Positions 3,948 to 63,138 of a DNA stretch of 64,000 nucleotides are shown piece by piece. Origin of the DNA: Octopus vulgaris (taxonomy: Eukaryota); the NCBI GenBank assembly GCA_951406725.2, contig OX597815.1, positions 203,298,001 through 203,362,000 on the forward strand, read 5' to 3'. The first letter of the stretch is position 1. Every line of letters starts with the position of its first letter. The notes below the pieces were generated by a model. It ran no database searches. It was not told the origin of the DNA and saw nothing but the letters and a program-made list of their open reading frames with translations. The translations under genes were made by a program, and so were the position numbers.

Positions 3948-4338
3948 GGATGGATGGAAGCACTCCGTCGGTTACAACGATGAGGGTTCCGGTTGATCCG
4001 ATTAACGGAACAGCCTGCTCGTGAAATTAACGTGTAAGTGGCTGAGCACTCCACAGACACGTGTACCCTTAACGTAGTTCTCGGGGATATTCAGCGTGAC
4101 ACAGAGAGTGACAAGGCCGGCCCTTTGAAATACAGGTACAGCAGAAACGGGAAGTAAGAGTGAGAGAAAGTTGTGGTGAAAGAGTACAGCAGGGATCACC
4201 ACCATCCCTGCCGGAGCCTCGTGGAGCTTTAGGTGTTTTCGCTCAATAAACACTCACAACGCCCAGTCTGGGAATCGAAACCGCGATCCTATGACCGCGA
4301 GTCCGCTGCCCTAACCACTGGGCCATTGCGCCTCCACA
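3948..4338 (-). mobile_element. SINE family A, full length
   Basis: Reverse complement of the 1365 copy; (TCCA)n tail; 13-bp TSD TAACGTTTAGAAT (3935-3947 / 4339-4351). Confidence 0.93.
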
Positions 4339-5639: not shown

Positions 5640-6040
5640 GACTCCTGCTCAGTTTCCGTCTAATTAATTCCACCCACCCACAAAGCATGGATCGAATCGA
5701 GGCTTTAGTAGATGGCAATTGCCTTAGGTAGTATATATATTTCTTTACTACCCACAAGGGGCTAAACACAGAGGGGACAAACAAGGACAGACAAAGCGAT
5801 TAAGTCGATTCTATCGACCCCAGTGCGTAACTGGTACTTAATTTATCGACCCCGAAAGGATGAAAGGCAAAGTCGACCTCGGCGGAATTTGAACTCAGAA
5901 CGTAAAGACAGACGAAATACTGGTAAGCATTTTGCCCGGCCTGCTACCGTTTCTGCCAGCTCGCCGCCTTAACTTAGGTAGTATATAACAGACCCGAACG
6001 TGAAACCACATAATTGTGAAGCAAGCGGCTTAACCTCATT
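5640..6040 (-). mobile_element. Old family-C-like SINE interrupted by a D1 SINE
   Basis: CTCAGTTTCCGTCTA...GAGGCTTTAGTAGA resembles the reverse complement of the family C body; similarity resumes after 5987. Confidence 0.55.
5738..5972 (-). mobile_element. SINE family D with D1 tail
   Basis: Head AAGGCGGCGAGCTGGCAGAA, B-box-like GAGTTCAAATTCC, central CCTTTCATCCTTTCGGGGTCGATAAATTAAGTACC; 15-bp TSD CTTAGGTAGTATATA (5723-5737 / 5973-5987). Confidence 0.92.
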
Positions 6041-14165: not shown

Positions 14166-14324
14166 GCCCCCCTCCCATACACACACACAGAGGCAAGGAA
14201 CTTCCTCTCAAATTCTTCGTTTTCGAAAAGTTTGATTCTAACCCATCAAAGCAGCAAGTTCTGACAAAACAGTGACCTCCACAGCTAGCACGTATCTTCA
14301 CCAAATTGTGTGCGGGTATTCTTG

Positions 14325-14543
14325 GCAGAAACGTTAGCACGCCGGGCGAAATGCGTAGCCGTATTTCGTCTGCCGCTACGTTCTGAGTTCAAATTCCGCC
14401 GAGGTCGACTTTGCCTTTCATCCTTTCGGGGTCGATAAATTAAGTACCAGTTACGCACTGGGGTCGATGTAATCGACTTAATACCTATGTCTGTCCTTGT
14501 TTGTCCCCTCTGTGTTTAGCCCCTTGTGGGTAGTAAAGAAATA
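14325..14543 (+). mobile_element. SINE family D1, slightly 5'-truncated
   Basis: 10-bp TSD GGTATTCTTG (14315-14324 / 14544-14553); tail ends GTAAAGAAATA. Confidence 0.92.
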
Positions 14544-14637
14544 GGTATTCTTGTATGCTATTAAGAATCTACCTCAATATCTTGAAACACAATATTTTAA
14601 TAGTAGGCATCTATTTCTCAATATATTGTAATACAGT

Positions 14638-14856
14638 AAGGCGGCGAGCTGGCAGAATAATTAGCACGCCGGGCGAGATGCTTAGCGGCATTTCGTTCAT
14701 CTCTATGTTCTGAGCTCAAATTCCATTGAAGTTGACTTCGCCTTTTATCGTTTCAGGATCGATAAAATAAGTACCAGTTGAGCACTGGGGTCGATTTAAT
14801 GGACTTAGCCCCTCCTCCGAAACTGCTGACTTGTGCCAAAATTTGGAATCAATATT
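14638..14856 (+). mobile_element. SINE family D with alternative D2 tail (TTGTGCCAAAATTTG...AATATT)
   Basis: Same head and core as D1, different 3' end. Confidence 0.88.
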
Positions 14857-14867
14857 TTGAGACAATG

Positions 14868-15312
14868 TAAGGCAGCAAGCTGGCAGAATTCTTAGTTCGC
14901 CAGAGGAGATGCTTAGCGGCGAGTTGGCAGAAACGTTAGCACGCCGGGCGAAATGATTAGCGGTATTTCGTCTGCCGTTACGTTCTGAGTTCACATTCCG
15001 CCGAGGTTGACTTTGCCTTTCATCCTTTCGGGGTCGAGAAATTAAGTACCAGTTATGCTCTGGGGTCGATATAATCGACTTAATCCGTTTGTCTGTCCTT
15101 GTTTGTCCCCTCAGTGTTTAGCCCCTCCTGGGTAGTAAAGAAATAGGCATTTCGTCCATTTTTACGTACCGATTCCACCGAGGTCGACTTTGCCTTTTAT
15201 CCTTTTAGGGGTCGATAAAATAACTACCAGTTATGCACTGGGGTCGATGTAATTGATTTACCCCCTCTCTGGAAACTGCTGACCTTGTGCCAAAGTTTGA
15301 AACCATTATATT
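14868..15312 (+). mobile_element. SINE D2 with a nested D1 copy (~14921-15145)
   Basis: Host reads ...GATGCTTAGCGGC | D1 copy ending AAAGAAATA | GGCATTTCGTCC... and continues to a D2 tail. Confidence 0.85.
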
Positions 15313-15706: not shown

Positions 15707-16077
15707 GGAAGCACTCGATGAGGGTTCCGGTTGATCCGAATCAACGGAACAGCCTGCTCGTGAAATTAACGTGTAAGTGGCTGAGCACTCCACAGACACG
15801 CGTACCCTTAACGTAGTTCTCGGGGATATTCAGCGTGACACAGAGAGTGACAAGGCCGGCCCTTTGAAATACAGGTACAACAGAAACAGGAAGTAAGAGT
15901 GAGAGAAAGTTGTGGTGAAAGAGTACAGCAGGGATCACCACCATCCCCTGCCGGAACCTCGTGGAGCTTTAGGTGTTTTCGCTCAATAAACACTCACAAC
16001 GCCCGGTCTGGGAATCGAATCCGCGATCCTATGACCGCGAGTCCGCTGCCCTAACCACTGGGCCATCGCGCCTCCAC
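15707..16077 (-). mobile_element. SINE family A
   Basis: Near-identical to other A copies, small deletion near the tail. Confidence 0.93.
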
Positions 16078-16253
16078 GAGTACAGTATACAATAGTATCG
16101 TGTTGAGTACGACAATGCACCGTAGTATAATCAGAGTTGTGTTATGTGAAGTATTACAATGTAGCGCAGTGTGTATAGAATTGAGCATCGTACTTCGAGG
16201 TAGGGCTGCACATTCAGTATTCTACAGTGTCGAGAATCCCAATATATCGTAGC

Positions 16254-16640
16254 GTGGAGGCGCAATGGCCCAGTGGTTAGGGCAGCGGACTCGCGGTCGT
16301 AGGATCGCGGTTTCAATTCCCAGACCGGGCGTTGTGAGTGTTTATTGAGCGAAAACACCTAAAGCTCCACGAGGTTCCGGCAGGGATGGTGGTGATCCCT
16401 GCTGTACTCTTTCACCACAACTTTCTCTCACTCTTACTACCTGTTTCTGTTGTACCTGTATTTCAAAGGGCCGGCCTTGTCACTCTCTGTGTCACGCTGA
16501 ATATCCCCGAGAACTACGTTAAGGGTACACGTGTCTGTGGAGTGCTCAGCCACTTACACGTTAATTTCACGAGCAGGCTGTTCCGTTGATTCGGATCAAC
16601 CGGAACCCTCGTCGTCGTAACCGACGGAGTGCTTCCATCC
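16254..16640 (+). mobile_element. SINE family A, full length
   Basis: 10-bp TSD ATATCGTAGC (16244-16253 / 16641-16650). Confidence 0.93.
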
Positions 16641-17911: not shown

Positions 17912-18007
17912 TGTTTTTATAAATAAATCGTGTTTTGGCTTTACGCTAAGCTCTGAGCTGAACTGAAGCACTGCTTTCCATTACCACTTGATCTACGATT
18001 ACAACTA

Positions 18008-18640
18008 ATATAGGTTTCGAATTTTGGCACAAGGCCAGCAAGTTCAGGGGGGGGGATTAAGTCGATTACATCAACCCTAGTGTTCATCTGGTACGTATTT
18101 TATCGATCCCGAAAGGATCAAAGACAAAGTCGACCTCGGCGGAATTTGAACTCATAAATAAAGACGGACAAACGAAATGCCGCAAAGCATTTTCCCCGGT
18201 GGGCTAACGATTCTGTCCGCTCGCTGCCTTTACCACCACCAATGTTAGTTTCGAAATTTGGCATAAGGCCCGCAATTTCGAGAAAGGGATAGGTTGATTA
18301 CAACTACCCTAGTGCTCAGCTGGTACTTATTTTATCGAACCCGAAAGGATGAAAGGTAAAGTCGACCTCGGCGGAACTTGAACACAGGACGTAAAGACTC
18401 ACAAAATGACGCTAAGCATTTTGCCCGTGCTAACGATTCTGCCAGCTCGCTGCCTTTAGCATTATAAACATAAGTCAAATTTAAGGCAGCGTGTTCAAAT
18501 TCCACCGAGTTCGACTTTACTGTTTATCCTTTTGGGATCGATCACATAAGTATAAGTTGAGTTTTGGGGTCGAAGTAATCGGCTTACCCGGTCTCCCAAA
18601 ATTGCTAGCCTTGTGCCAAAATTTGAAAGCAATATTTCTA
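18008..18640. mobile_element. Cluster of three family D2 SINEs: 18008-18231 (-), 18240-18457 (-), 18481-18640 (+, internally deleted)
   Basis: Each matches the D core (GTCGACCTCGGCGGAA... or its complement) and the GCACAAGG/TTGTGCC tail. Confidence 0.85.
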
Positions 18641-22519: not shown

Positions 22520-22810
22520 GTCTGTGGAGCCGAAACAATGTTCCCTGGAATGACTAGCATTGTGCCAAAATTTGAAACCCATATTAAGTCTCACATGGCG
22601 GTGAGCTGGCAGAATCATTAGCCTTCCAGCCGTAATGCTCAGTAGCATTTCGTTCTTCTTTACGTTCTGAGTTCAAGTTCCACTGAGGTCGACTTTGCCT
22701 TTCATCCTTTCGGGTTCGCTAAAATAGCAGCTGAGCACTGGGGTGGATGTCATCGACTTAGCCATTGCTTCGATCTTGCTCGTCTTGTACTAAAATTGGA
22801 AACCAATATG
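22520..22810 (+). mobile_element. D2 SINE tail fragment followed by a full D2 copy
   Basis: TGTGCCAAAATTTGAAACCC, then GGCGGTGAGCTGGCAGAA...GCCTTTCATCCTTTCGGG. Confidence 0.8.
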
Positions 22811-23879
22811 AATAGGGACTGTTCACTTCGGAGAGTCACCATTTTGCATATGTGTGTTTATGAAAGTCACTGTATGTTAACGAATAAAAAGAGAGTACAA
22901 TTTCATGAATTGAGTTTCAAATCACAGCAGTCGCCAGAAGAGAAATGGAATTACTCAGTATTCTTGTTCTTTTATATCTTCCATTTTTCTGTCAGATTGT
23001 TCTTTTGTTTACGAGTATTCCTACTGGTATTCTTTTTGTCATATTGTTTGTGTTAAGGTGTTCTCTGTGGCTGTTTATTTCACTGAACAGTTTTATTAAG
23101 TTGTTTGGTTACGTTTTCTTTGTTAGAGTTGTTTTAAGGATATTTCCATTTTACTGGTAAACTTGAATATTATTCTTTTTATGCCATTTATTGTTGTGTT
23201 TCTATAAACGTATTTCTCAGAGACTATTAATTGCCGCTTTTAGATTTTTTTCTTCGTTTTGTCGAGAGTTTTGCCTCTCTTTTACATTCTCTTGTTTTCC
23301 AATAAAATTAGTTTGTTTTTTTTTTTCTTACATTCGGTTGATTGCGCATATTTCCTGTTTATAAAATTCATTGTGTTCCAGTTGATGACTAGTTTTTTGA
23401 GATGTTTATTGGAAAGATTTTTTTTTTCAGTTCGCTGATCATGTAACCTGTTTTTGGCTAAAAGAGATAATTTGAGTGTCTCTCGTCGAGTGATTTTTTT
23501 TTCTTTTGCTTAATGGTTATAAACGCAATTTTGACAATGAATATATACTAGTACTTACATATATTTATGTGTGTGTAATGGATTGCATACATAGTTTGCA
23601 TTGGTTCTTTAGTGCACAGGTCTTCTAATCGTTTATAAGTACATTTTTACGCGTGTTATACGCCTAACTAGTTAATGCAATTCAATGCAATTCGTGATTG
23701 CAGTTTGCTCCCTATGCATATCGTTTTGGTGGACCGTGGTATTTCTACTATTCTGCTGGCATTGGCCTTGCGCTTTTTCGCTACCCATAACCGTTGTTGC
23801 GACATCCTTGCTTGACTACCCTTCTTGGAATTCAGGTGACTTTTTTGAAGATGAATTTATTTAGTATCATCAATGTATG

Positions 23880-26762: not shown

Positions 26763-27368
26763 TTATTTATTTATTTGCAATCTTTGTACGCTGTCTCGTA
26801 AGAACTTTCCTTTCCGTGGGAATCTTGTTATTATGTGCATTTGTCCTTCTCTCTGAGGCAAAACTTTTTGCATATGGCTTGCATTACAGACATGAAAGTT
26901 TTCAATTTCATGTCTGTCAGATGCAGAAACAGATTGAGACCAGTCCTGTTTGGTGATCCCTTTGTTAATTGGTTTCCAGTCTGCTTTGTGGTAGTTCAGA
27001 CTGGATAGGTGTTTGGTGCTTCTCACAGGCTGCATGTCTGAGGTTTCCTTTGATCCATACATGATCAGCTCTACAATGTTGTGATCCGAGATTAGCGTCG
27101 GTGTCTCTTTCACATGATGGATGAGATCCACATTGTTTGTGAAGCAGGGATTAAGTATATTGCTTGCTCTGATTGGTTGGAGTACTATCTGCTCCATATA
27201 TAAGTTGTTGGTTAGGTTGAGCATATATTCCACCTGACTTTGCTCACATTGCATCATTCGTGGAAGGAAAAGGCCTTCAAGCCATTTCGCATTGGGCCGG
27301 TTGAAGTCTCGCATGAAGAAGTACACTGATGTGCTCTTCTATTTTAGTTAAGACCTCTTCTATTCTTG
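26763..27368 (-). mobile_element. LINE ORF2 AP-endonuclease fragment (CR1/Jockey-like)
   Basis: 187-aa ORF with (G)DFN, P.R.SNIL..CFTN, SDH and NYHKADW motifs. Confidence 0.82.
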
Positions 27369-29157: not shown

Positions 29158-29497
29158 TAAATCAAGCACAGAGACTAGGATTACTACCCCCAAAACTAGG
29201 AGAGTTAAAATGTAAATCTCAACAATTAATGCCTTCATGAAATCATAATTAACTTTCATGTTAAGAATTCACCTTTCTTTAGCTTGACTGAAGAACAAGT
29301 AAGACGATTATATAAATCAGGTGTTTCAGTATCTCATCCAAAGAAGATATCTCGTTCATAAATTATTCATTAAATTCAAAAGTATTACACGTATCTTAAG
29401 ACCATTTCTGCAGAAGCAGTACAATTTTTGCGCGTGCATGCATGTGTGTGTGTGTTTGTGTGTGTGTGCGCGCGCGCGCGTGTGTGTGTGTGTTTCC

Positions 29498-29885
29498 GTG
29501 GAGGCGCAATGGCCCAGTGGTTAGGGCAGCGGACTCGCAGTCATAGGATCGCGGTTTCGATTCCCAGACCGGGCGTTGTGAGTGTTTATTGAGCGAAAAC
29601 ACCTAAAAGCTCCACGAGGCTCCGGCAGGGGATGGTGGTGATCCCTGCTGTACTCTTTCACCACAACTTTATCGCACTCTTACTTCCTGTTTCTGTTATA
29701 CCTGTATTTCAAAGGGCCGGCCTTGTCACTCTCTGTGTCACGCTGAATATCCCCGAGAACTACGTTAAGAGTACACGCGTCTGTGGAGTGCTCAGCCACT
29801 TACACGTTAATTTCACGAGCAGGCTATTCCGTTGATTCGGATCAACCGGAACCCTCGTCGTCGTAACCGACGGAGTGCTTCCTCC
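29498..29885 (+). mobile_element. SINE family A, full length
   Basis: 15-bp TSD TGTGTGTGTGTTTCC (29483-29497 / 29886-29900). Confidence 0.93.
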
Positions 29886-34883: not shown

Positions 34884-35815
34884 GTGATGAAACCTCACAG
34901 CTTATTTTGCTGGGTATGACGGAAAGTGTCAACTGTCAACGGAAAGTGTCACTGTCCACAGCAACAGACTAAGGTGACATTTACTGGTTATGCTTCAAGA
35001 ACCCTGCGAAGAAATCTTGCAGTCCCAAGGAATGCTGATCTACCTTCACACTTGCACCAATCTTTTGCTGATACTTCCAAGTGCACCAATTACTATTGGT
35101 ATCACATCTACTCTCCTCATTGACCACAACCTTCGTATTTCACACTTCATATCATCATAGTTTATTTTACTTTTCTTCTTGTTTCACACTGATCTTGATG
35201 ACACCTAGGCATACTATGTCGATTACCATGCATGTTCTTTCTTTTTTATTCACCACAACAATATCCGGTTTCCTATGTCTGGTAAGGTGATCGCATTTGA
35301 TCATTGCATCCTACAGGATTTTGCAATTTTCGTTCCCGAAGACTCTTTCTGGGGTTTGCTCATATAACGTCTTTGCTCTTTGTAAACCGTGATTTCTACA
35401 GTCCCAGTGGATCATTCTTGCCACATTGTCATGGCGGTTTTAGTATTCGCGTTGTGTCAGTTTCGGGCATTCGCTAACGATGTGTCATACCGTTTCATCC
35501 CTCTCACCACACATTCTGTCCGTAGTGTCATTTATTCTATACTTCATATAGTTGGTCCTTAACGCTTGTTCTTGAGCTGCGCATATGACTGCTTCTGTCT
35601 CTATCTTCAAGTCACTCCTCCTCATCCATAACCACCGGTCCTCTATATCTATCTTGACGCTCACATCTGTTGCAAGCCGAGCGTACATTTTTCCATCTAT
35701 GCATTTTCTGTTTTTTACTTTTTTTTTGTTCATTTCTTGTTTAAATTTTTCTTTCACACATTTTTCTGGTCTTCGTATACATTTTCATCACTTCTCTCTT
35801 TTGCCATTTTATAAC
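34884..35815 (-). mobile_element. 5'-truncated R4/Dong-like LINE (CCHC finger, restriction-like endonuclease, 3' UTR)
   Basis: Peptides LKIETEAVICAAQEQALRT, RMCGERDETV*HIVSEC, RHDNVAR, RKPDIVVVNK, VIPIVIGALG, FLGTARFLRRVLEA*; 3' end runs into (TAA)n. Confidence 0.9.
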
Positions 35816-36091
35816 GCTTAATAAGGAAATAGTAACAAAGAAAAATATGCTAGAGAAAAACCTAGCCAGTATCTTTGAAGAAGCGATTTCGAAAGGTATA
35901 GCAAACGATGTGCTGGCAGTGAGAATGAGCCTCGATTTTTTTCTCTTCAAAAAACATAAAGGTTGCATTATCAGAGCTAAACTGTATGGCTAAGACACGA
36001 AGATAAGAGAACCGTTTGGTGAACCCGACTGCAAGACACGCAATGTAGCAGTAAAGATGCAAATCTTTCTTTGGATGATTAGGACGGAAAC

Positions 36092-39716: not shown

Positions 39717-39782
<66 letters not shown>

Positions 39783-39869
39783 GGGAGAGAGAGAGGGAGA
39801 GAGAGAAACAGAGAGAGAGAGATAGGTAGATAGACAGATAGACAGGTAGATAGGTAGACAGACAGATTG
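39714..39869. repeat. (GATA)n/(GA)n/(GACA)n tract at the 3' end of a LINE
   Basis: Directly visible. Confidence 0.95.
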
Positions 39870-40061
39870 ATTTCTTTATTAGTCACACAGGGCCGAACAC
39901 AGAGGGGACAATGCAATGTGGAACTTTTCGAAAGAAAGAAAGAAAGAAAGATTGAAAGAAAGAATAAAAGAAAATGTAAAACAGATTAGGTTTATCCGTG
40001 GAAAGAAAAGCTTACGAATAAGACCACGGTAACCTCAGGCAAGGAAAGAAACACATGAGAG

Positions 40062-40107
<46 letters not shown>

Positions 40108-43100
40108 GCTCTTCGATTTACAAGATCACGCGTACCGTCTTTGCTACATTTACCTACCTTTTTGAAACTTTCATGAGACAACACTTCCCTCTCTATTCTC
40201 ACCTTCTTTTTCAAGTGATACTTGAAAATATTGATGAGCGATTGACCAGAGAGAAAGTGTTTGTCTCTAAACCTTTCGCACGAGTCCACCACCCACATTC
40301 TTTCACTATAGCCACCAGCACAATGGAAACTGCCTTGCTTTCCCGGTTAAAGGAAGGTGGCGGGACAATATTCACGATAACCGAATTCGACCCACAGCAG
40401 CCGTTTGACATAAGCCCAAAGGTCTGGAATTGTTGGACACTGCACGAGTGCTTACAGAACGGTTTCGTCGCTCTGACTGCATCTCGGGCATGTAGGTAGG
40501 CAATTAAGTCCACTATGCGTTCTGACCCACCAGTTGTCCCGGACAGTCGGGCAAAGTGCTGTGAAAGGCCTCACATCCTTTCGGGCTCGAGTAATTCGCT
40601 CCCCTGTTCATCTGTCAGAGACCTAATTGTGGATTTGTTGCCTCGTTGCGCCTCCACCACTCGAACCTCTCGGGCGGCTCCAATTTCTCCGTTTCTCAGA
40701 GCATGCATCCTAGCTCTAACAACACATCCTTCGTGTTTGGCGTTGAAGTATTGGTCGAGGGCCAACCTCGCCTCCAGCACGTTGGACGCGATGTCACTTC
40801 TATGTGCCTCTTCTAATTTCTTAACTAAGTCTCCCTCTATTCTAATTTCGATCTATCACTAGAACCTTACTATACCTAGCCGATTCTGCTTTAATTGCTT
40901 TCTTTAAAGCATACCGCCAACTATTGTTGACGATGGCTATACTGTCAATGTTCTCTTGACTAATGTGCTAATCCGGTATCTGTAAGCCTGTCGCGCCGTG
41001 AACGATGCGTTCAGTTTCCAGCAACCGGGACCCTGCCTATGATTCTTATCTAAGTCAAACGTACACGTCACAAATTTGTGATCTGTGTAGCTGACTTTAT
41101 GAAATTGTGGACAAGCTACACTATCCCTATCTACTGCCCTACAGAATACTCTATCTAAATACGATCTCGACGACCCGATGCGGTTGCTCCATGTCCACAT
41201 TGGCACATTCGAGTGGTCCAGTCGGTCAGACAGTTGGAAACGTCTGAGCAGGTCTATGAGGTATTTACATCTCCTCCTATTCCTATCTCTACCCACGTAA
41301 TCTGGATGCATATCCAAGGTAGCGTTCCAATCCCCCACTAAAAGTAAAGGTCGAGACGTTCTCGGGAAAACCTCTAGACGTCAAAAGAAATCCGCTTGAT
41401 CTGTTAAGGACGGTACATAAACTGTTATGAGTCGAAAAGCACACCCATTACTGCCATCGACATCCAAGACGACCAGCCTACGCTTCCGGGTCTTGGAATA
41501 TTGCTCTTACTTTGAGGTCCAGACTCTTCCGAAAAAGCACCGTGGTACCACCTCCGCTCATTCTCGGCAGACACGGAGAAAAATAGATGTCAAATTGTCC
41601 GCCAAACATATGCTGGAGAGCCCGCAGGTTGTGGAGTCTCGTCTCACTGATGGCTATGATATGCACATTCTGTGATTTGATACCATTTAACAAGTAGCCT
41701 TGTTTCTAAGGCGACCTCAAGTCATGCACATTTACACAACCATGTTTCTATCGAAAGTTATGCTTTACACACGAAAGGAAAAGGAAAAGAATGAGAGAGA
41801 GAGAGAGCCACTAACTGTTCGGAAGTTGGTTGTTCTCCTCCTCGCCATCTTCTCTCAGGAGGTTTTTCTTTTTTCCTTTTCTTTTTTTTTTTTTTTGAGA
41901 AGTACTTTTGAAATCTCCCTACTGCATCAGGGTAGAGAGATTTCAGTGTGTTGTGTGTGTTTTGTGCCACGTATATGATTTTTATGCGTTGTGGTAGTGT
42001 TGTGCGTGGGTGACTGTTTGTTTTGACATTGTCTTCTGTTATGTTGGTGTTTGACCTAATGTATTGCATTAGGGCTGAATTGTTTGTGTTTATTGCTGCC
42101 AACATTGTGGAGCCATTTGGTGTTTGTGTGTTTGTAGTGTTGGTGGTAATGTTTTTACTTTGTGCTGTAGTTTTTGTTCTCGGGAGCGGTGAGATTCCTT
42201 GCTTTGTTTGATTGCGTGTCTCTTCTTTTCTTTCTCCATTTTCTTCTTCCCTCCCCGCCGCCTGTGGCCATTTGCCATTCTTCTGTATCGCCTTCGTCCG
42301 ACTACATATCGGAGGAATCACAAGAAGGGAGGGGAATTGTATTGGGATCAATTTGTGTGTGTGTTGTTGTTGATGTTACTGTTGTTGGTATTGGTTGTTG
42401 TTAGGATGTGATGTATGGGTTGATGGGGATGGGGTTAGTTTTTCCTTTTTTTCTTCTGGGTTGGATGCTTGTGTTGTTGGTGGTGGTGGTGATGATGGTG
42501 ATGGTGTTGTCTTTGTACTTGGTGGCGCTGATGGTGGTGTTGTTTGGTTGGGCTGGCTTTTGGTTGGTGGAGCTCTTTCATTTGCTTTATCAGTTGTGCT
42601 GCTGGCGTTGTGAGTAGCAGTGCTGGTTTGCCTTTCGGTTTTTGGTTTTGTTGTTGTTCCTGTTGTTGTTGTCGTTGTTCTTCTTCTTTTGCTAGTTGGC
42701 AGTCTTTTTTTAGATGATACCTGTTACCACAGAGGTAGCAACGTGGCCTTCTGTCTTCAACGGTCACAAGTAGGGTTGTGCCATCTGGATGTTGAATCAA
42801 ATCTGGAAGACATTAAATATGGAATCAAATCTGGAAGGACATTAAATATTTCTTTTGCTTTAAAACAGAACCAAAAGGATTTAGTTTGTCTGTGACATTG
42901 TTGTTGGTGGTAGCAGTTTTCGTGGCAGACGTGGTGGTGACAGAAGTGATAGTCATGGTTTCACTGCTCATTCTTTTATGAATGTTTTCATTGTTTCTGC
43001 CTTCACTTCCCACTTGTTCGGAAGGAGAGGATGCATTAGTATGCGTATTGTTTTTCAAATGTGTGGTGGGGTGCATCAATGTTTTTCTTTTTGTTCGACG

Positions 43101-43180
43101 TGTTCGGTGAAGGTAATGGAGAGAATTCCGTTTCTAACTGGAGCGCAGGAACGCTACCACTGTTAGCTGAACTGTCCATG
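39870..43180 (-). mobile_element. Tx1/L1-clade LINE, decayed, RT domain deleted
   Basis: ORF1 zinc knuckle CYLCGNRYHLKKDC (ORF 42435-42800); ORF2 APE motifs ISETR, GDWNA, TW, LDR, TDH, WKLN (40937-41740); linker joined at ~40491 directly to the C-terminal CPRC finger; AATAAA at the 3' end. The 5' boundary is approximate. Confidence 0.88.
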
Positions 43181-43386
43181 CATGCTTTCCAGACAGATGA
43201 AAGTATTTATGAGATAAGATTTTGCTATACGAAAATTGGCCCTTAAAGGGAAAATTTTGGAGTGATCTTCGCTCAAGGCCAAGCAGATTTTATTAGGAAC
43301 CTTTCTGACAAAAATATATACAGATATACATAAGCAAACACGACAAACTATATGAACTTATACGAGACGATGCGAGCAACAGCCAA

Positions 43387-43510
<124 letters not shown>

Positions 43511-44387
43511 GTTTCTTTATTAGCCACACAGGGCTGCACACAGATAGAACAAATTACAAGGTAGAGCTTTTCTTTTGAAGGTTTAAAAAAAAAAAAAAAA
43601 AAAAAAAGGAAGGAGTTTCGATCAAAAGGGATCGTAAAAGGAGAGAAAGAGGACAAAAAAAGGGGGGTTAAAAAAAAAGGGGGAGAGAAAAAAAAAAAAA
43701 AAAAAAAAAAATTGATCAATAGGGATCGTTATCACAGAAATGTCAATATGAAGTGTAAAGGGGAGGACAGGTGAGGTTTACCCGTGGAAAGAAAAGCCTA
43801 CGGAAAAGACCACGGTAACCTCGGTCAATGAAGTCACATTTTATATTTCTTTTTTTTTTTTTTTTTTTTTGCAAATAAGCAACTCTCTGTTTTCGATTTC
43901 TGGGTTCATAGGACTATGCTCAAGGTGGCTTCGTCATTCATACGTGCCATTCTTGCTACATTCACCCATCTTTTTTAAAACATTCGCTAGACAAAACTTG
44001 CCTCTCTACTCTCACTTTCCTTTTCAAGTGGTACTTGAAGAAGTTGATGAGAGATTGACCAGAGAGGTAAGTGTTTGTCTCCAATCCTTTCAGACGCGTC
44101 CACCAGATACATTCTTTCGCCATAGCCACAAGGATGATGAAAATAGCTCTTCCTTCCCGTTTGAAGGAAGGAGGCGTGACAATATTGATAGACTCAGCTG
44201 ATAAACCGACTCGTCCCACACGTGACAGCAGTTGTTCGACATAAGCCCACAGGTCGGAAATTGTTGGACACTGAACGAGTGCGTGCAGAACGGTTTCGTC
44301 GCTCTGACCGCATCTCGGGCAGGTCGGCCCCGTGTTTCTCGAGCCGTGTCTGTAGAGCTTATCCCGAACGGGTAGCGCTTCTCGGTA
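43511..44387 (-). mobile_element. 5'-truncated Tx1/L1-clade LINE (ORF2 C-terminus and 3' UTR), same family as 39870
   Basis: YREALPVRDKLYRHG..CPRCGQSDETVLHALVQCP zinc finger; homologous to 39870-40491; (GATA)n on both sides. Confidence 0.92.
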
Positions 44388-45202
44388 GATAGATAGATAG
44401 ATAGATAGATAGGCAGACAGAAAGATAGACAGATCATACATACATGCAAATATACATACCCATATATACACAGTCATCGATTTACATACATGCTTACATA
44501 CATACACATGCATATACATACATACATACATACATACATACATACATACAGACGGACAGACAAATTTATGACAATATCATAGAATGTGCTTTTCTACTTT
44601 CAAAGCCCATGGGGTGGCTCCGGAGAGAGATATACTCGTTGTTTCTAACACGTCAATCAATTTTGCAGAAGCCTTCTCATTAGATTGTATCTGAAATGTT
44701 AAAGTCGAAAATAAAGTGGAAAAAAAACTACTGAAATATAGCATTTTATCTGAAAGTAAAATAGAAGCTAAAAATGAATAAACAGATTCTCCGTCGACTT
44801 CGACGATGACTATTCCACTTGCTCGACTGTGTGAAAAACCTACTCATCATATTATACTGTGACTTCTGACATTTGTATCGTGAATGTAATCTGAAGCCAA
44901 GCTCAGAATGACAATGTATTTGACAAAGGTGTGTCTTTAAAGTACAAGCAAATCCAGTCGATGAGATTTCATGCAGTTTTAGTTCGTCCGTCAAGAATCT
45001 ATGCTAAAAGAACCTTACCCAAGACGCTAAGCAACTCTATCGAAATCGGATTATCGTGTTTTCAGGGCGAGTCTCTTAACCATTCGACTACGGCTACAGT
45101 TATAAACCAGAGACACAATGGCAAAGAAAAACACACACCGGCACTCACACACTCACGCACACACAGACCTATACAAAACGTCACATACGCAAACACATGC
45201 AC

Positions 45203-49644: not shown

Positions 49645-49847
49645 TTTCTACTCTAAGCACGAAATTTTGGGGGAGGGAGCCAGTCGATTATATCAACCCC
49701 AGTATTCATCTGGTACTTAATTTATCGACCCTGAAAGGATGAAAGGCAAAGTCGATCGGCGGAATTTGAACTCAGAACGTAAAGACAGACGAAATATCGT
49801 TAAGTATTTCGCCCGACGTGCTAACAATTCTGCCAGCTCGCCGCCTT
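49645..49847 (-). mobile_element. SINE family D
   Basis: Core and head match the 5738 copy. Confidence 0.88.
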
Positions 49848-50582
49848 GAATTTAGTAAATATTACCTGCTTAATGATAATATTCTATTATATTGAAAATT
49901 TCGATACGACTTGGGTGTCATCGTTTGTTGATTTCCTGGTTACTCGAATACTATGGAGGTTAGACTGTTTCGTGAACTTCTCAAAGCACTCAGGAAAAGT
50001 AAAAACACATTTCAGCTGCTTTCTCAGTTTCTTCTTTCAATTGTTTAAATAGATACAACACTTCTTGCTGGTTGCTGTCTTAGAAGAGAGAAGAGTTATA
50101 TATAGCCATATCCAGCCAAATACTTAAGATCATTCGATATTTTCCATGGTTATAGTGTGTCCGTGTTAGTTTATGAAGTTACACTCAGTCGAAATTTTGT
50201 AACTATAGTAACTTTTATTTTGTCAGATTAATTATTAATGTTTTCTTTTGTAAGTTGACAGTTCATGGTCTAATGATGCTGAAACATAATTTTATATATT
50301 TTTTACTCCAGCTATTTTCATAATCTTCATTTTGGTATCTAATAGTATCGCTTCACACTCAAGTGATATGATGAAATAACGCGAATATTAGATTACTTTT
50401 CGTTTTTAAACTACTTTACTTTAAGAAATTAAGCTGTCACACACGTGCAGTATGAACGAACATTCTGGAACGCAAAAGTAAGCCAAACGTAAATGATTGA
50501 TCGTCGTCTTTTGAGTTCTATATCTGATCACAGAAATCAAGAGATTGTCATACAAAGAGAATGTGTATGTTGTGTGTGTGTG

Positions 50583-51798: not shown

Positions 51799-52038
51799 TG
51801 AAACGGCCGTAATGCACTGATATCTGGATATCCTTGTTACTTATTTGCTTTTTATTCACCTTCCTTCGAGAGCTGTGTGATGATACCGGACTGACCTGGT
51901 GCCTCAACTTAGTACCTAATTCAAATGAATCGTAACTATTTATTGTCCCTCTCTCTCTCTTTTTCTCTCTTATCCTGTCCCCAAATTTTTTCCTCTCCCC
52001 TTCACAGTTCTCTGTCTGTCACTCTCTCTCCTTCACCT
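51799..52038 (+). repeat. 240-bp dispersed repeat, near-identical to 58714-58953
   Basis: TGAAACGGCCGTAATGCACTGATA...CTCCTTCACCT in both places; the duplicated MNRNYL ORFs derive from it. Confidence 0.92.
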
Positions 52039-52264
52039 CAAGAAAAAGTGGAAGAGTTGACTAAATGTAGAAAGAGAATCTTGATATTAAGAATATTATT
52101 TAGTGATCAATCCTTTACATGGTAAAAGAAGATAGAGTCTAAGTATAGATAATTGTCACTTATTTGCGTTTGTGGAAGCATTGAAATAAATGAGACAGAC
52201 TTATTGAGTTCCTTAAGGCATGCCTTGAATAAATATGAAAACTGTTGAGTCATACAATGCTAGT

Positions 52265-52484
52265 AATATTGGCTTCAAATTTTGACAACAGGCCAGCAAT
52301 TTCGGGGAAGAGAGTAAGTCGATTACATGGATCCTAGTGCTCAAATAGTACTTATTTTATAGACCCTGAAATGGATGAAAGGTAAAGTGGACCTTGGAAG
52401 AATTTGAACTCTGATCGTAAACACAGACGAAATACTGTTAAGCAATTTGCGACGTGCTAACGATTCTGCCAGCTCGCCGCCTTA
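52265..52484 (-). mobile_element. SINE family D2
   Basis: Head GCCAGCTCGCCGCCTT, core and D2 tail present. Confidence 0.87.
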
Positions 52485-52869
52485 ATGCTAATAATAATAA
52501 AAATGAAATTACCCAGTAATATCGGAATAATATTCCAGTAGATAATGTTTCTTTACTATTTCGTAGTCATTAGGACTGCGAAACGTAGTCTCCAGACTCC
52601 CTCAAATCAAATTCCATCTTTAGCACCGAATTACAGATGGATAACGTAGTCCTGGAGATATACTCATAAAGAAGTCAGGATCACTGCATCCGGAATGCTT
52701 TAGATCGTAGCATTGCTCAATTGAGACACACCCAAAGCTAAGCAAGAACAGCAGTCTGGATGTTATGAGTTGATGCCAAATTAAACCTCTAATTTGTAAA
52801 GCAACTGTTGTAAAAGGTACAATATATTAAGCAAGTATGTCATGTAATTCAGTTTGGAGAACAATGTCA

Positions 52870-53400: not shown

Positions 53401-54261
53401 GAAAATACTTTTAAACATACTCAGTCCTCCAAGTGTAGCACTCCGTTTTACAATATAACTATTTGCATAACAAAGTATATAAGAAAGTTCCTGTCATAAT
53501 AGTAATTACATTAATGGTTCCGAGATTAACATAAGGCCAGAAATGTTTAATTACGCCCGAAAGTCAAATGCGACATTGGTATGGTTTGAATCTAAAACAA
53601 TGATATGAAACTAAAAACTTTATACGTTTTTATACTGTTGAACCACTGACGTCCTTGATTATGCTGACAGTGCTGTCTTGCAGCAGTAGTTTTTGAACTC
53701 CGGGTGCATTCTGAGAGCAGAGCCTTTCAGACATTGATGAGGACTTTCGTAAAAGCTATTTAACCTCAGATATTTCAATCTCGATCAAGAGATAACCTTT
53801 TTCACCATAGCCGCATAGATAATGAAGAGGTGCCCGCCTTTTTTGGTCAAAGGAAGGTGCGGTGTGATATTTACGTCAGTCTTGATTGGCGCTGGAACAG
53901 ACCAACATGTTATAATAGCTCTTCGACATGAAATGCTTGTGCACAGAGAGTGTGTGTTTATCCGAAATTTACAATGGCCACCAAGTAGCACTTCTGGCCG
54001 AAGTATTTCTTATCCATAGTACTTGATCCGGGATTTCTCTGGAATATGCTACTCATTTGATCCTTGTCATGGTCTAGAGTATTCCCCTAAAATATCGTCA
54101 CCCTTGCTTTCCACAAATCCTCTATATACTGAAAAGCTGATGCTCCTCTGGCCGTATTGCCCGATTGGTAGACAAATCGGGGTTGCTGAGATTATTTTAG
54201 TTGCTCGGTTCCTAATCCAGTACAGCAACTTTGTGAAAGACGTGAGTAGGGAAAAAATGTG

Positions 54262-54314
54262 TTAGGGTTAGGGTTAGAGTTAGGGTTGGGGTTAGGGTTA
54301 GGGTTAGGGTTAGG
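54262..54314 (+). repeat. Interstitial telomeric repeat, ~9 x TTAGGG
   Basis: Directly visible; two variant units (TTAGAG, TTGGGG). Confidence 0.93.
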
Positions 54315-55244
54315 CAACCACAATTGCTTAGCGTTCAGGAATCTCTGCTGATGCCGCAGAATCAATGCATACTTGTACATCGTTTGGCCTGACATACCGA
54401 AAGTTCTGCGTGTGAGTGTCGGCAGCAGATGTAATTTATGACCACTGGAATGTGTCTTTTCATAAGAAGTGAAAGAGCAGCTGTCCAACATTCCTATACA
54501 TTTAAGTCGATAATTATGTAGTGTCAAAACTGTAGTTTCTTCAAGTCTTTGTGTTTCAAGCATCGTAGATGATTCAATAAAGACAATGGTCAGGGGATTC
54601 CTCCGTCGCCAGCATTTCCATAATTGTTTAGTTTTTACCTTTTTTTGTGCTACTCACCCACTTTACACCAGAAGCAACATTCGTTGCATGTTTTCACGGT
54701 TAGACACTTGCATAGATTTCGGAACGAATTAAGATGATCAAAGAATTTCGTCGGCGGTAAATTGTCTGCAACACCAGGAGAAACGCACACACACACACAC
54801 ACACACACTAGCTCTTAACACTGGCATTTGAAGCTGACTGGGAGGTATTTTACACATAAACTCTAGGATAAAATACAAACAGAACTGAACATATTTCAAC
54901 CTGCACTCTGTCACCCTCACGAAATTTATTCTGACAGCATTATCAGAAGTTCCTTCCCAAAAGTATAAACTGTGCATATATTAATGTTAAAATCTGTAGT
55001 TAAACTTATATTAATAAGTATCTTAGTCTTTGAAACCGCTTATTATGGTAAATAGAACAAATGAATGTTGCATCGCATAAGGCTAAACCTGGTTAAAATC
55101 TGATTATGCATTTAGAATCGATGTACGAAAGTACATGGATAACGCATATCGAAACATGTGCTTATCCGAGTCGCTTTTCGTTTCACTCTTTGAAAGATTT
55201 CGCTCAAGCACGTAAGACAATATACAATAGAAAAATAACCAGCA

Positions 55245-55462
55245 ATTGTTTCTAATTTTGGCACAAGGCCAGCAATTTTAGAGAGAGTTATTTGATTACA
55301 TTGTTGTCAGTACTTGACTCGTACTTATTTTTATCGACTCTGAAACGGATGAACGGCGAAGTTGACTTCGGCAGTATTTCAACTCAGAACGTAAAAAGCC
55401 GGAAGAAATTCCGTTAAGCATTTTGTCCGATGCGCTATCGATCTTGCAAGTTTGCTAACTTA
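55245..55462 (-). mobile_element. Diverged SINE family D2
   Basis: TTTTGGCACAAGGCCAGC...AACTCAGAACGT. Confidence 0.75.
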
Positions 55463-55649
55463 GTAATAATATAATAGTACTGAATAAAATTCCAACAATA
55501 AATACGAGTATTTTAGGTGTTTTTGTTGGTGCTGTTGCTTAGATCAATGTCAATCAAACCGTAATTAACTTGCCATGGAGGAGATAATTTATCTAGAAAC
55601 TGCTTTAACTACTTTATCTAATGGGCCTAGTCTTTTCTTGAGACATTAA

Positions 55650-58020: not shown

Positions 58021-58243
58021 TATTTCTTTATTACCCACAAGGGGCTAAACATAGAGGGTACAAACAAGCATAGACAAAGGGATTAAGTCGATTACATCGA
58101 CCCCAGTGCGTAACTGGTACTTAATTTATCGACCCTGAAAGGATGAAAGGCAAAGTCGACCTCGGCGGAATTTGAACTCAGAACATAGCGGCAGACGAAA
58201 TACTACTAAGCATTTCGCCCGGCGTGCTAACGTTTCTGCCAGA
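58021..58243 (-). mobile_element. SINE family D1
   Basis: Tail reads GGGTAATAAAGAAATA followed by GGTAT on the minus strand. Confidence 0.9.
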
Positions 58244-58685: not shown

Positions 58686-59325
58686 TTGCATTGATCGATT
58701 AAATGGAGCCACCTGAAACGGCCGTAATGCACTGATACCTGGATATCCTTGTTACTTATTTGCTTTTTATTCACCTTCCTTCGAGAGCTGTGTGATGATA
58801 CCGGACTGATCTGGTGCCTCAACTTAGTACCTAATTCAAATGAATCGTAACTATTTATTCTCCCTCTCTCTCTTTTTCTCTCTTATCCTGTCCCCAAATT
58901 TTTTCCTCTCCCCTTCACAGTTCTCTGTCTGTCACTCTCTCTCTCCTTCACCTTTCCTTCTTTGCTCACGTGGCCCCCATGTGACCATCGACTATTCTCC
59001 TAACTTGCGTTTCATGCTTTCTTCCTGTTTCAGCTGGACAGGGAAGACGTATTGTTCTCTGTCTCCTATCCAGACTTGTTTCTTCACGTTCGCCACCACA
59101 ACCTCCTCGTTCAGGCTTAGCAACCCTTCCTGTTTGTTTTCACGGTCCTGTTTTTGTCACCAATCTTGACTCTCCGCAAGCTCGCAAATTCTATTTAATT
59201 TGTTTTGCGGGAGAAACTGTTTTATCGAAGGCGTATCTTGTCGTGAATTGCTAGAAATACGGATTAGAAAAACTTCGTATTTTTTGTTGTTTATGTTATG
59301 TGACGTCCTGTGCCCACATATGCAT
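58686..59325 (+). mobile_element. Probable Penelope-like terminal repeat remnant (contains the 240-bp repeat)
   Basis: Half hammerhead GAAA-CGGCCG-TA-ATGCA with upstream TGCAT; pyrimidine-rich body ending in TA repeats. Confidence 0.45.
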
Positions 59326-59484
59326 ATGTATATACGTATACATATTATGTACGTATACGTATGTATATATGCATATATATATATATATAGTCAATAAAAA
59401 AGGGTAAAATTAATTAATTATTAATTAATTCGACCGAGCAGTGTTCGATATGTAAAACGACCATTTACGGTATATTTGAAATAT

Positions 59485-59772
59485 TACTTTATAAAAACAG
59501 GGTAAAGTAAAATAATTTACTTTACCACACACCGAGCTTTTTAGAAATAGCAGCCAAAAATTTGGCTATTTCTTCTACTGCAAGAAAAGTCTCCCAGACA
59601 ATGCATACTCAGAAATAATTCACGTAGGTATAAGGGAAGAGTTATTTCTGAGTATGCATTGTCTGGGAGACTTTTCTTGCAGTAGAAGAAATAGCCAAAT
59701 TTTTGGCTGCTATTTCTAAAAAGCTCGGTGTGTGGTAAAGTAAATTATTTTACTTTACCCTATTTTTATAAA

Positions 59773-59775
<3 letters not shown>
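59485..59775. repeat. Near-perfect long hairpin (134-bp arms, 23-nt loop)
   Basis: 59485-59618 is the reverse complement of 59642-59775, one mismatch seen by eye. Confidence 0.95.
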
Positions 59776-59863
<88 letters not shown>

Positions 59864-61375
59864 GATATGTAGAAAAATACAAACTGAGACAAGAACGCAT
59901 AAGAACTTAGAAGACGATACAACAAACACAGACAGGACATTCGAAGCCCTCAGTCTTCAGTCAAGAACCGGATCATCGTAGTAATTTCGGCTGATTAATC
60001 TTGAGATTACTAGAACCGGCCAGCCCTCCAGGAGAAACTAAGCAACGAGCATTAGAAAAACTAAGCTAGGAGCGTAGATTTCCTGGAAGAAGGATCGAAT
60101 GCATACGAACACAAAGATAGCAAAAAGGACGGTGCCACACGAATATAAAAAACAAAAAACAATAATGAAATACAAAAACGTGGAATACAAAAGCAATAAC
60201 GGTAGAATATATATAGTCTGTATGTCCTACCCTTTTTGTTTTAGTGATGAAATATAACTTAATGGAAATTCGCTCTTATGTCTAGTAGGTAAACCTTCGC
60301 ATAGAAAGTCCTGGTTGAAACAATGCGTATATATGTTTGCCTGATAGTATGCGTTTCCTGAAATTCCAGGATAAAGATTCATAAATAATCACGGTAAAGC
60401 CAGTTGTTCTGAAGAGTGTGATGTCAGCAACATAACGCTCTGTATGTCAACTTTTCACATGACAAACTCCGTGTATCTGATATATGTTATTTCTCAAGCT
60501 ATAAATTCTCTTTATCCACCCACACAGAATTTTGATTTTATAATGTCATATTTATGCATCTAAAAAAAAAACATTGTTTTGTGTGATTGAAATAAATCTT
60601 ACCGTGACATTTCTGTATTTAGAAAATGTCTGATTTGTGTAGGTGTTTGTACAACGCCTAGACTTACCTTATTTATTTCTGGTTTTCAAAAAATATCCGA
60701 TCCGGTGAGGATGCATCCAAACTCAGCTTGTCCTTTTATCCATCGCTCAACCTATCCTACCAATGGATAACAGCAACAGTCACAATAATAATTCATTCTA
60801 CTATAGGCACAAGGCCTGGATTTTTTGGGGAGGGTAAGTCGATCCCATCGACCCCAGTACACAGCTGGTACTTAACTTATCGACCCCACTAGAATGAAAG
60901 GTAAAGTCGACCCCGGCAGAATTTGAACTCAGAACGTGCAGACATACGAAGTACAGCTAAGCATTTCACCCTGCATGTTAACGATTCTGCCAGCTCACAG
61001 CCTTATGTAATGAATGTACTAATTATGATAATAATATCAGAGTAAAATGATGATGACGAGAAGAAGGTGGGGATATAGAGAAGAATCTTTTATCTAATTA
61101 GCAACATACATACGATACAAAATGAGTCATACAAACGCGTTACAAAACATGATTGGTGTATACATTCGAGGCTTTCTTCCAAGGAATCTAATGCGCTTGG
61201 CTTAGATTTTCCTTTGGGGCTGGCCAGATCGGAGCAATCTCAAGATTAATCAGCCGAAATTGCGAGGTTCTTGACTGAAGATTGAAAGCTTCGAATGTCC
61301 CGTCCGTGTTTTTTTTGTATCGTCTTCTAAATGTTTTGCGTTCTTGTCCCAGTTTGTATTTTTTTACATATATAT
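59864..61375. repeat. Diverged inverted pair of a ~230-bp repeat (59864-60110 / 61157-61375)
   Basis: AATTTCGGCTGATTAATCTTGAGATT vs AATCTCAAGATTAATCAGCCGAAATT; AATACAAACTGAGACAAGAACGCA vs TGCGTTCTTGTCCCAGTTTGTATT. Confidence 0.85.
60795..61005 (-). mobile_element. SINE family D
   Basis: Core and head match other D copies. Confidence 0.85.
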
Positions 61376-62324: not shown

Positions 62325-63097
62325 TAAATATTAGGGAATAAATCCAAATTTACAGGGAAAAAAATCAGATTTAGGATTAAATCCAATTTTATAGTAAAAT
62401 ATTATAAAATATTACTAGAGACAAAACCACTATTTTGCAAAGCAAACAAGGAAAGACTTAATCAATACATAAAATTTTAATAAATAGTCAATAAAACCGC
62501 CACTACAATTGTTTCTTGTCTTGATCGACAATCTTCAGGTGGACTTCAATCTAAAATATCAATATTTTAAAATATAAAAATAATAATTTTAAAATAATTA
62601 AAGTATTAATGAAAAAATATGAATATATAATCCATATATAACCTATATATAATCCATATATAATCAATATATAAACAATATATAAACTAAAATAAACCTA
62701 TCAACAATTAAATATAAAATATAAAATATAAAATATAAAATATAAAACAAAACAAAAAATAATAATAATATAATAATAAACTATATATACACCCATACAC
62801 ATATAACTAATTATATATAACCATATCTAATTACATACACTAAATCACACACCTATATATATATCCCTATACATACACATAAAAACGTCTAGGCAACTAT
62901 AAATAAATAAAATAGCTAAATACTTCAACACAATACTTATTCATACTCCCACACACTTATATAGCAATCCCTTTAACCTATACATTCACACACAAATACA
63001 CACACGTAAACCACACACCCATAACAAATATAAAATTTTATGTATTGATTAAGTCTTTCCTTGTTTGTTTTGCAAAATAGTGGTTTTGTCTCTAATA

Positions 63098-63106
<9 letters not shown>
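62325..63106 (-). mobile_element. Penelope-like terminal element with a 76-bp inverted repeat and a hammerhead
   Basis: 62404-62479 vs 63031-63106 inverted (74/76 by eye); (TA)n flanks; hammerhead inside. Confidence 0.65.
62500..62542 (-). ncRNA. Minimal type I hammerhead ribozyme with intact core
   Basis: Minus strand: CCAC-CTGAAGA-TTGTC(GATCAA)GACAA-GAAA-CAATTG-TA-GTGG; stems I and II pair, stem III is the palindrome ACAAUUGU, cleavage triplet GUA. Confidence 0.8.

Positions 63107-63138
<32 letters not shown>

Follow-up and report, generated by a model that had tools for sequence, protein, structure and literature searches.

A 3' tail shared by an octopus SINE and a LINE of the L1 group, probably of Tx1 type

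The sharing of a 3' tail between a long interspersed element (LINE) and a short interspersed element (SINE) has the L1 clade as its known exception. Three SINEs with L1 tails, all plant or algal, have been counted for upwards of 800 LINEs of the L1 clade (PMC3747384), and the proposal of an ancestral L1 stringency rests on these plant and algal cases (PMC3472496; PMC3747384; these and the other articles are cited for part of their text). An earlier, sequence-only reading of the DNA described here had called such pairs rare in the L1 group, in agreement with that count. Bivalve SINEs use CR1, CR1-Zenon, L2 and Nimb (PMC11481361). In Octopus vulgaris, SINEs make up 11.6% of the DNA and 13 L1-Tx1 families have recently been active, with no partner analysis in the covered portion of the article (PMC13282606); octopus SINE classes are given as tRNA-Deu and tRNA-Core, with no partner LINE in the covered text (PMC8967140). 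The present analysis concerns a stretch of 64,000 nucleotides of O. vulgaris (assembly GCA_951406725.2, contig OX597815.1, positions 203,298,001 to 203,362,000), hereafter the window, in which a SINE that we call D1 shares its 3'-terminal 42 nucleotides with the end of a LINE. We propose, with reasonable though not full confidence, that the D1 tail is the 3' end of a poly(A)-less LINE of the L1 group, likely Tx1, and that D1 is copied mainly by a sister family rather than by the microsatellite-targeting family found in the window.

The shared 3' tail

The LINE is present in two copies on the minus strand, arranged head to tail. Copy 1 (39870-43385, about 3.5 kb, decayed, its 5' end approximate) ends in the 42 nucleotides shared with D1, without poly(A) (39870-39911), and the 5'-truncated copy 2 (43511-44385) lies upstream of it, with its tail at 43511-43560. 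D1 is a very abundant, non-coding element of about 235 bp, whose four copies in the window are 90.5-94.6% alike: copy a (14325-14543, plus strand, 5'-truncated, tail at 14501-14542), copy b (5738-5972, minus strand, full length), copy c (58021-58242, minus strand, 5'-truncated) and copy d (14918-15145, plus strand). As the sequence-only reading had reported, 39870-39911, read on the minus strand, and 14501-14542, read on the plus strand, are identical at 35 of 42 bases without a gap and end at the same position. When the 42-mer was slid over both strands of the window, six places scored at least 32 of 42, namely the LINE ends at 39870 and 43511 and the D1 tails at 14501, 5739, 58022 and 15103, and the next best scored 25. 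The best window match in 300 dinucleotide shuffles never exceeded 28 (mean 24.1), and a composition-aware binomial gives 35 of 42 a probability of 1.5e-14 per position and of 1.9e-9 across 128,000 window positions.

The four D1 copies score 35, 35, 34 and 32 of 42 against the tail of LINE copy 1 and 32, 32, 32 and 29 against that of copy 2; since the two LINE tails are themselves identical at 35 of 42, the D1 tail lies inside the spread of LINE tails. Its first 16 bases match LINE copy 1 exactly, the match to copy 2 lengthens to 50 columns with one 3-base gap, and the four copies of D1 and the two of the LINE all finish on the same terminal base. The tail has been retained although the two LINE copies, 78% alike in open reading frame 2 (ORF2), are mostly unalignable in their 3' untranslated regions (UTRs). 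The 3'-terminal sequence by which a stringent SINE/LINE pair is recognised is therefore common to D1 and the LINE.

This sharing extends to the families, as is indicated by contigs from four of the 24 listed sequencing runs, aligned to the end of LINE copy 2 (6,512, 5,225, 1,521 and 1,190 contigs per run) and to D1 (137,705-358,554 per run on head, core and tail, sister subfamilies included). At 43548, 43546 and 43537 the D1 letter accounts for 44-58%, 40-45% and 5-9% of the LINE-family depth, respectively, shares that are rough, contig depth not being copy number. In loose ends of the contigs, the D1-like TTGTCCCC is continuous with upstream sequence of the LINE type. The last 26 bases of the LINE family carry no listed variant of at least 3%, while upstream sites vary, and at that threshold no D1 letter is listed at alignment columns 17, 23, 24 and 30 in LINE-family contigs; seeding bias is a possible contributor to both absences. 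The likeness classes of contigs aligned to D1 and to the LINE overlap, a crude sign that their ages do as well. A loss of similarity at the consensus level, which the earlier reading had named beforehand as speaking against the pair, did not occur in the contigs or in the copies, which agree at 29-35 of 42. In other contigs, tail pattern scans returned two loci without similarity to the window, judged to be chance, and a second scan none; scans with the SINE core pattern returned none, and the pattern of the LINE C-terminus matched 77, 33 and 39 times in contigs from metagenomes, viruses and genomes, with none of the matches confirmed.

The LINE belongs to the L1 group and probably to Tx1, the latter by features rather than by a tree with named references. 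Its homologues come from Octopus bimaculoides and Argonauta hians. P0010, a relative with 68% identity to LINE copy 2, matches human L1 ORF2p with E 2.7e-50 and R2 with E 3.6e-24, and P0016, a full-length relative, aligns colinearly with L1 across residues 6-854 (E 8.8e-69); the affinity was judged from these two relatives, copy 1 having its reverse transcriptase (RT) deleted, and the ORF2 proteins of CR1, L2 and RTE lay outside the match lists. Two traits of the L1 group are present, an N-terminal APE endonuclease in ORF2 (PF03372) and a C-terminal CCHC region (PF13966, zf-RVT), and target-specific insertion, a trait of Tx1, is seen in both LINE copies, which lie in ATCT-type repeats. The ORF1 of Tx1 has a CCHC knuckle in place of Transposase_22 (PMC5203782). 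A zinc knuckle with the exact spacing CX2CX4HX4C, read by eye, lies in the ORF1 remnant of copy 1 (42699-42740, minus strand), in which Pfam matched neither a CCHC knuckle nor Transposase_22. Because the knuckle, the targeting and the absence of poly(A) come in addition to an L1-like ORF2, the element fits Tx1, and the earlier placement in the L1 group with Tx1-type features stands. Named Tx1 elements were absent from the homologues, whose names did not decide between Tx1 and L1. Separately, an O. bimaculoides gene model, P0013, joins the ORF2 end of this LINE family to ORF1-like sequence, a fusion that could stem from Tx1 elements arrayed in tandem in the genome concerned.

The position of D1 among the SINEs of the window points to an exchange of tails. 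Older sister SINEs with the D1 head and core and at least two other tails are found at 14637-14860, 18001-18460 (a pair in direct tandem), 18493-18640, 22597-22815, 49663-49855, 52260-52510, 55244-55480 and 60790-61005. At least eight such copies, sharing the D1 core, score 12-24 against the LINE ends, compared with 51-59 for the three D1 copies aligned. As the sisters have the same core and other tails, D1 can be regarded as a tail-exchange subfamily, and transfer of the tail from LINE to SINE is the simplest reading of its direction. The head of D1 carries motifs that we take to be A and B boxes, read by eye against the general box consensus; ARAGORN and Rfam returned no hit in the SINE head.

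The suggestion that a small stem-loop persists in the tail holds in part. Stems of 4 bp are present in LINE copy 2 (columns 18-21 with 28-31) and in D1 (columns 19-22 with 28-31), but they are weak, their registers lie one base apart, and LINE copy 1 forms no hairpin at all (0.0 kcal/mol for the segment). Twelve folds of the six tails gave z-scores between -0.91 and +1.19, none significant, and the expected covariation failed to appear, with no pair changed on both sides in either register among only five distinct rows. Despite the three differences between them, D1 and LINE copy 2 both retain a hairpin of -4.5 to -4.7 kcal/mol; an equally stable one is kept by 13% of random three-change sets, and by 9% of those in which a stem base is changed, so that its retention is suggestive at most. 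Folds and pair counts lend no support above chance to the recognition through a structured 3' end that the earlier reading proposed, and a proven hairpin is rejected.

Insertion sites and the carrier of D1

Clear target duplications flank two of the four D1 copies and thereby fix the 3' end of the element at AAAGAAATA. Copy a is bounded by the 10-bp GGTATTCTTG (14315-14324 and 14544-14553), and copy b, in an AT-type site, by the 15-bp TATATACTACCTAAG (5973-5987 and 5723-5737). Copy c is followed by GGTATA and has no clear duplication. Copy d lies between TTAGC and GGCATTTCG, and the older sister SINE that hosts it (parts at 14869-14917 and from 15146) is split in its head, exactly at a GGTATT-type site. 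The motif GG(T/C)AT(T/A) stands directly 3' of three of the four copies, at a motif density of 0.0006 sites per base. In the contigs, the D1 depth over 14544-14549 is 0.43, 0.43, 0.40 and 0.41 of that over 14538-14543 in the four runs and then falls more than 100-fold, to below 1%. About 40% of the D1 3' depth thus continues into GGTATT, a site within the SINE's own head; the loose end at 14549 is SINE head (14366-14395) in all four runs, and joints lead back from 14549 to about 14400. Such a continuation could come from a dimeric master, yet insertion is favoured, because copy d interrupts the head of a sister SINE at that very site.

The LINE shows another signature. Copy 1 runs directly into a degenerate (ATCT/GTCT)n and (CT)n microsatellite (39717-39869, minus strand), an (ATCT)n target array separates copies 2 and 1 (43389-43510, minus strand), and an (ATCT)n repeat also precedes copy 2 (about 44386-44420), so that copy 2 has the repeat on both sides. 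The family ends seen in the contigs run into ATAT and AT/ATCT repeats, with 0.65-0.68 of the depth continuing over the first three bases and 0.41-0.42 over the next three, and no SINE-head flank was found on the LINE family among 24 of the 180 loose-end rows. The flanks of D1 and of the window LINE family hence differ, GGTATT against AT/ATCT, and the common target of a stringent pair is not found.

The insertion sites of a passenger are expected to be those of its carrier, an argument that has been used for the crocodilian SINEU (PMC4494074), and by which the carrier of D1 would target the SINE head. Since the targets of D1 and of the window LINE family differ, the main carrier is more likely to be a sister Tx1 family. 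The earlier reading had named either this LINE or a sister Tx1 family, and its two halves have fared unequally: this LINE is disfavoured by the missing RT of copy 1, the AT/ATCT sites and the unseen D1 letters, and a sister fits better. Copy 1 cannot have supplied the enzyme, as its RT is deleted, and it is ruled out as an active carrier; the loss may be either a single accident or the mark of an RT-less, non-autonomous family. A partner of D1 at the level of the L1/Tx1 group is likely, and the specific family is probably not that of the window. We propose that D1 captured a Tx1 tail, likely by template switch. It would be transcribed by RNA polymerase III, and the end of its RNA presented to an ORF2p of the Tx1 group, which would bind the tail, whether by its sequence, the weak 4-bp hairpin or both, nick the target and start target-primed reverse transcription at the AAAGAAA end without poly(A). 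For the main carrier, we predict a sister family with the SINE head as its target.

Several points weigh against this proposal. The continuation into GGTATT could come partly from dimeric or tandem masters, which contigs alone cannot separate from insertions. No sister LINE with the exact D1 stem or a GGTATT flank was seen in the contig data, in those same 24 of 180 loose-end rows, and contig seeding may drop diverged LINE families. The D1 stem letters come from the four window copies, the hairpin is not significant, and Tx1 membership, though probable, is drawn from features.

The alternatives differ in what they make of the tail. It is unlikely, in our estimation, that the Tx1-derived tail is now a relic or a weak aid, the Tx1 proteins being unselective towards the RNA and D1 being chosen by its abundance or by a GGUAUU read-through flank that pairs with the nicked target. 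The lack of a significant fold and of any both-sided pair change agrees with this idea, as does the likely movement of SINEU by Tx1-Mar without a shared tail (PMC4494074); however, all four D1 and both LINE copies end at one base, the last 26 bases of the LINE family show no listed variant while upstream sites vary, and the tail is preserved where most of the 3' UTR can no longer be aligned. That the microsatellite-targeting family of the window is itself the main carrier seems distinctly unlikely. The 35 of 42 identities to copy 1, among them the whole of the first 16 bases, and the overlapping likeness classes agree with it, as does D1 copy b, which occupies an AT-type site like those of the LINE loose ends at 43512, and this family may therefore carry a minority of D1 copies; it is the GGTATT flank on about 40% of the D1 depth, as opposed to AT/ATCT repeats, and the D1 letters not listed at 3% or more at the four columns that speak against a larger role.

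A carrier from another clade, with the Tx1 likeness being secondary, is very improbable, even though CR1, L2 and RTE supply most known pairs (PMC3747384; PMC11481361) and RTE and CR1 families have recently been active in O. vulgaris (PMC13282606). Elsewhere in the window the 42-mer matches at 25 of 42 at most, which is a narrow test, since the only trace there of another LINE is a weak piece of endonuclease; D1 does not end in a simple repeat, and specificity for a target sequence is a Tx1 trait (PMC4494074). The probability that the match is due to chance, or to a D1 fragment that landed at a LINE end, is negligible: the segment is short and partly AT-rich, but P is about 2e-9 over the window, and in two diverged copies and thousands of contigs the tail is linked to upstream sequence specific to the LINE, its letters differing from those of D1. 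Shuffle statistics and contig linkage contradict both versions.

The sister-family proposal can be extended, as a possibility that we hold more tentatively, to the octopus Tx1 families at large, which would form a stringent, poly(A)-independent L1 branch in which one 3' signal has been kept, targets have diverged and one SINE rides several families. If this is true, each D1 insertion site records its mover, in the SINE head or in an AT/ATCT repeat.

Other features of the LINE copies and the surrounding repeats

LINE copy 1 can be followed from a 5' UTR through a broken ORF1 and an ORF2 with the APE endonuclease, a deletion of the RT and a C-terminal zinc region to the 3' UTR, with many stops. 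The endonuclease is read in two frames with stops (41050-41747, minus strand; PF03372, E 1.1e-05 and 4.1e-04), and no solved structure matched this fragment. The deletion junction lies at 40490-40500 (minus strand), where the alignment to the 912-residue P0010 breaks off after residues 1-213 and resumes at 774, which corresponds to a loss of about 1.7 kb of ORF2, RT included. Copy 2 retains the ORF2 C-terminus with zf-RVT (PF13966, E 1.7e-06) and a 3' UTR of about 395 nt. Apart from the tail, the two 3' UTRs have in common only a 66-bp island (39981-40046 and 43767-43832, minus strand), which is 86% kept between them and absent from D1; its predicted stem of 11-12 bp with a pyrimidine-rich loop of 22 nt is not significant (z -1.72 and -0.54).

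Three further LINE fragments are present. A very old Tx1-like ORF2 relic (53752-54261, minus strand; 23% to P0010, E 8e-06) has no recognisable tail, and its 5' break adjoins a (CCCTAA)n telomere-like repeat (about 54260-54315). A related ORF2 linker fragment lies at 35811-35981 (plus strand; 54% over 57 residues to P0010), and at 26766-27338 (minus strand) a weak match to an endonuclease marks a fragment of another type of LINE (PF14529, E 0.0048). A second SINE family, with young copies that measure about 390 bp and are 96-97% alike, has a tRNA-like head and a different tail without a match to the LINE tail; its copies are at 16253-16640, 1361-1749, 3955-4338, 15716-16078 and 29497-29882, with truncated copies in addition. 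The window also contains long, near-perfect inverted repeats resembling miniature inverted-repeat transposable elements (59471-59789; 62399-62479 with 63031-63112) and one 240-bp direct repeat at 97% (51799-52038 with 58714-58953).

Comparison with described systems

The octopus SINEs OK, OR1 and OR2, reportedly described by Ohshima and Okada in 1994, are said to be abundant and of tRNA type, and D1 may be one of these or a subfamily, a likeness of description and not of sequence. An animal SINE with a Tx1-derived tail was not found in the literature searched, which was mostly open-access, with Repbase and Dfam entries and supplements outside its scope, and which also included parts of PMC5786205, PMC4824008, PMC3531059, PMC4758252 and PMC5804259. 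If the proposed pairing is true, the ancestral stringency of L1 could be tested directly on a poly(A)-less Tx1 pair from an animal, families that combine one tail with different targets would allow RNA recognition and DNA targeting by an L1-type ORF2p to be told apart, and the enzyme behind a major octopus SINE expansion would be named.

Pairs that resemble D1 in sharing a 3' end of 45-80 nt with an L1-clade LINE are ZmSINE2 and ZmSINE3 with LINE1-1_ZM in maize and sorghum and SINEX-3_CR with L1-1_CR in Chlamydomonas (PMC3472496; PMC3747384). These three are tRNA-type SINEs, whereas a tRNA origin of D1 is suggested by box-like motifs identified by eye. The monocot hairpin shows compensatory changes and reaches -10.8 to -17.7 kcal/mol, compared with -4.5 kcal/mol and no covariation in D1 (PMC3472496; PMC3747384). 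The Chlamydomonas pair ends in poly(A), unlike the octopus pair, which is found in an animal, lacks poly(A) and inserts site-specifically (PMC3747384). Crocodilian SINEU, like D1, is likely moved by a Tx1 element, prefers another repeat and forms tandem insertions; it ends in poly(A), the 3' half of SINEU-1 resembles no LINE in Repbase, and its link to Tx1-Mar is by target only (PMC4494074). In contrast, D1 has the tail in common with the LINE and frequently targets the head of SINEs from its own group. Kibi, Koshi and the crocodilian microsatellite-targeting Tx1 families are of APE type, like the window LINE, but they insert into (TC)n, (TTC)n, (TTCC)n and (TTTC)n rather than (AT)n and (ATCT)n, and the covered text of these articles names no partner SINE for them (PMC4494074; PMC3812793). 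Bivalve SINEs resemble D1 in having tails of 35-61 bp with 72-95% identity and in exchanging tails on one core (PMC11481361). UnaL2 and ZfL2 belong to other LINE clades, and their need for a stem-loop has been shown by assay, while D1 is known from sequence (PMC4176376). The pairing of a SINE and a LINE through a shared tail is accordingly known in kind, and it is unusual for the L1/Tx1 group in animals.
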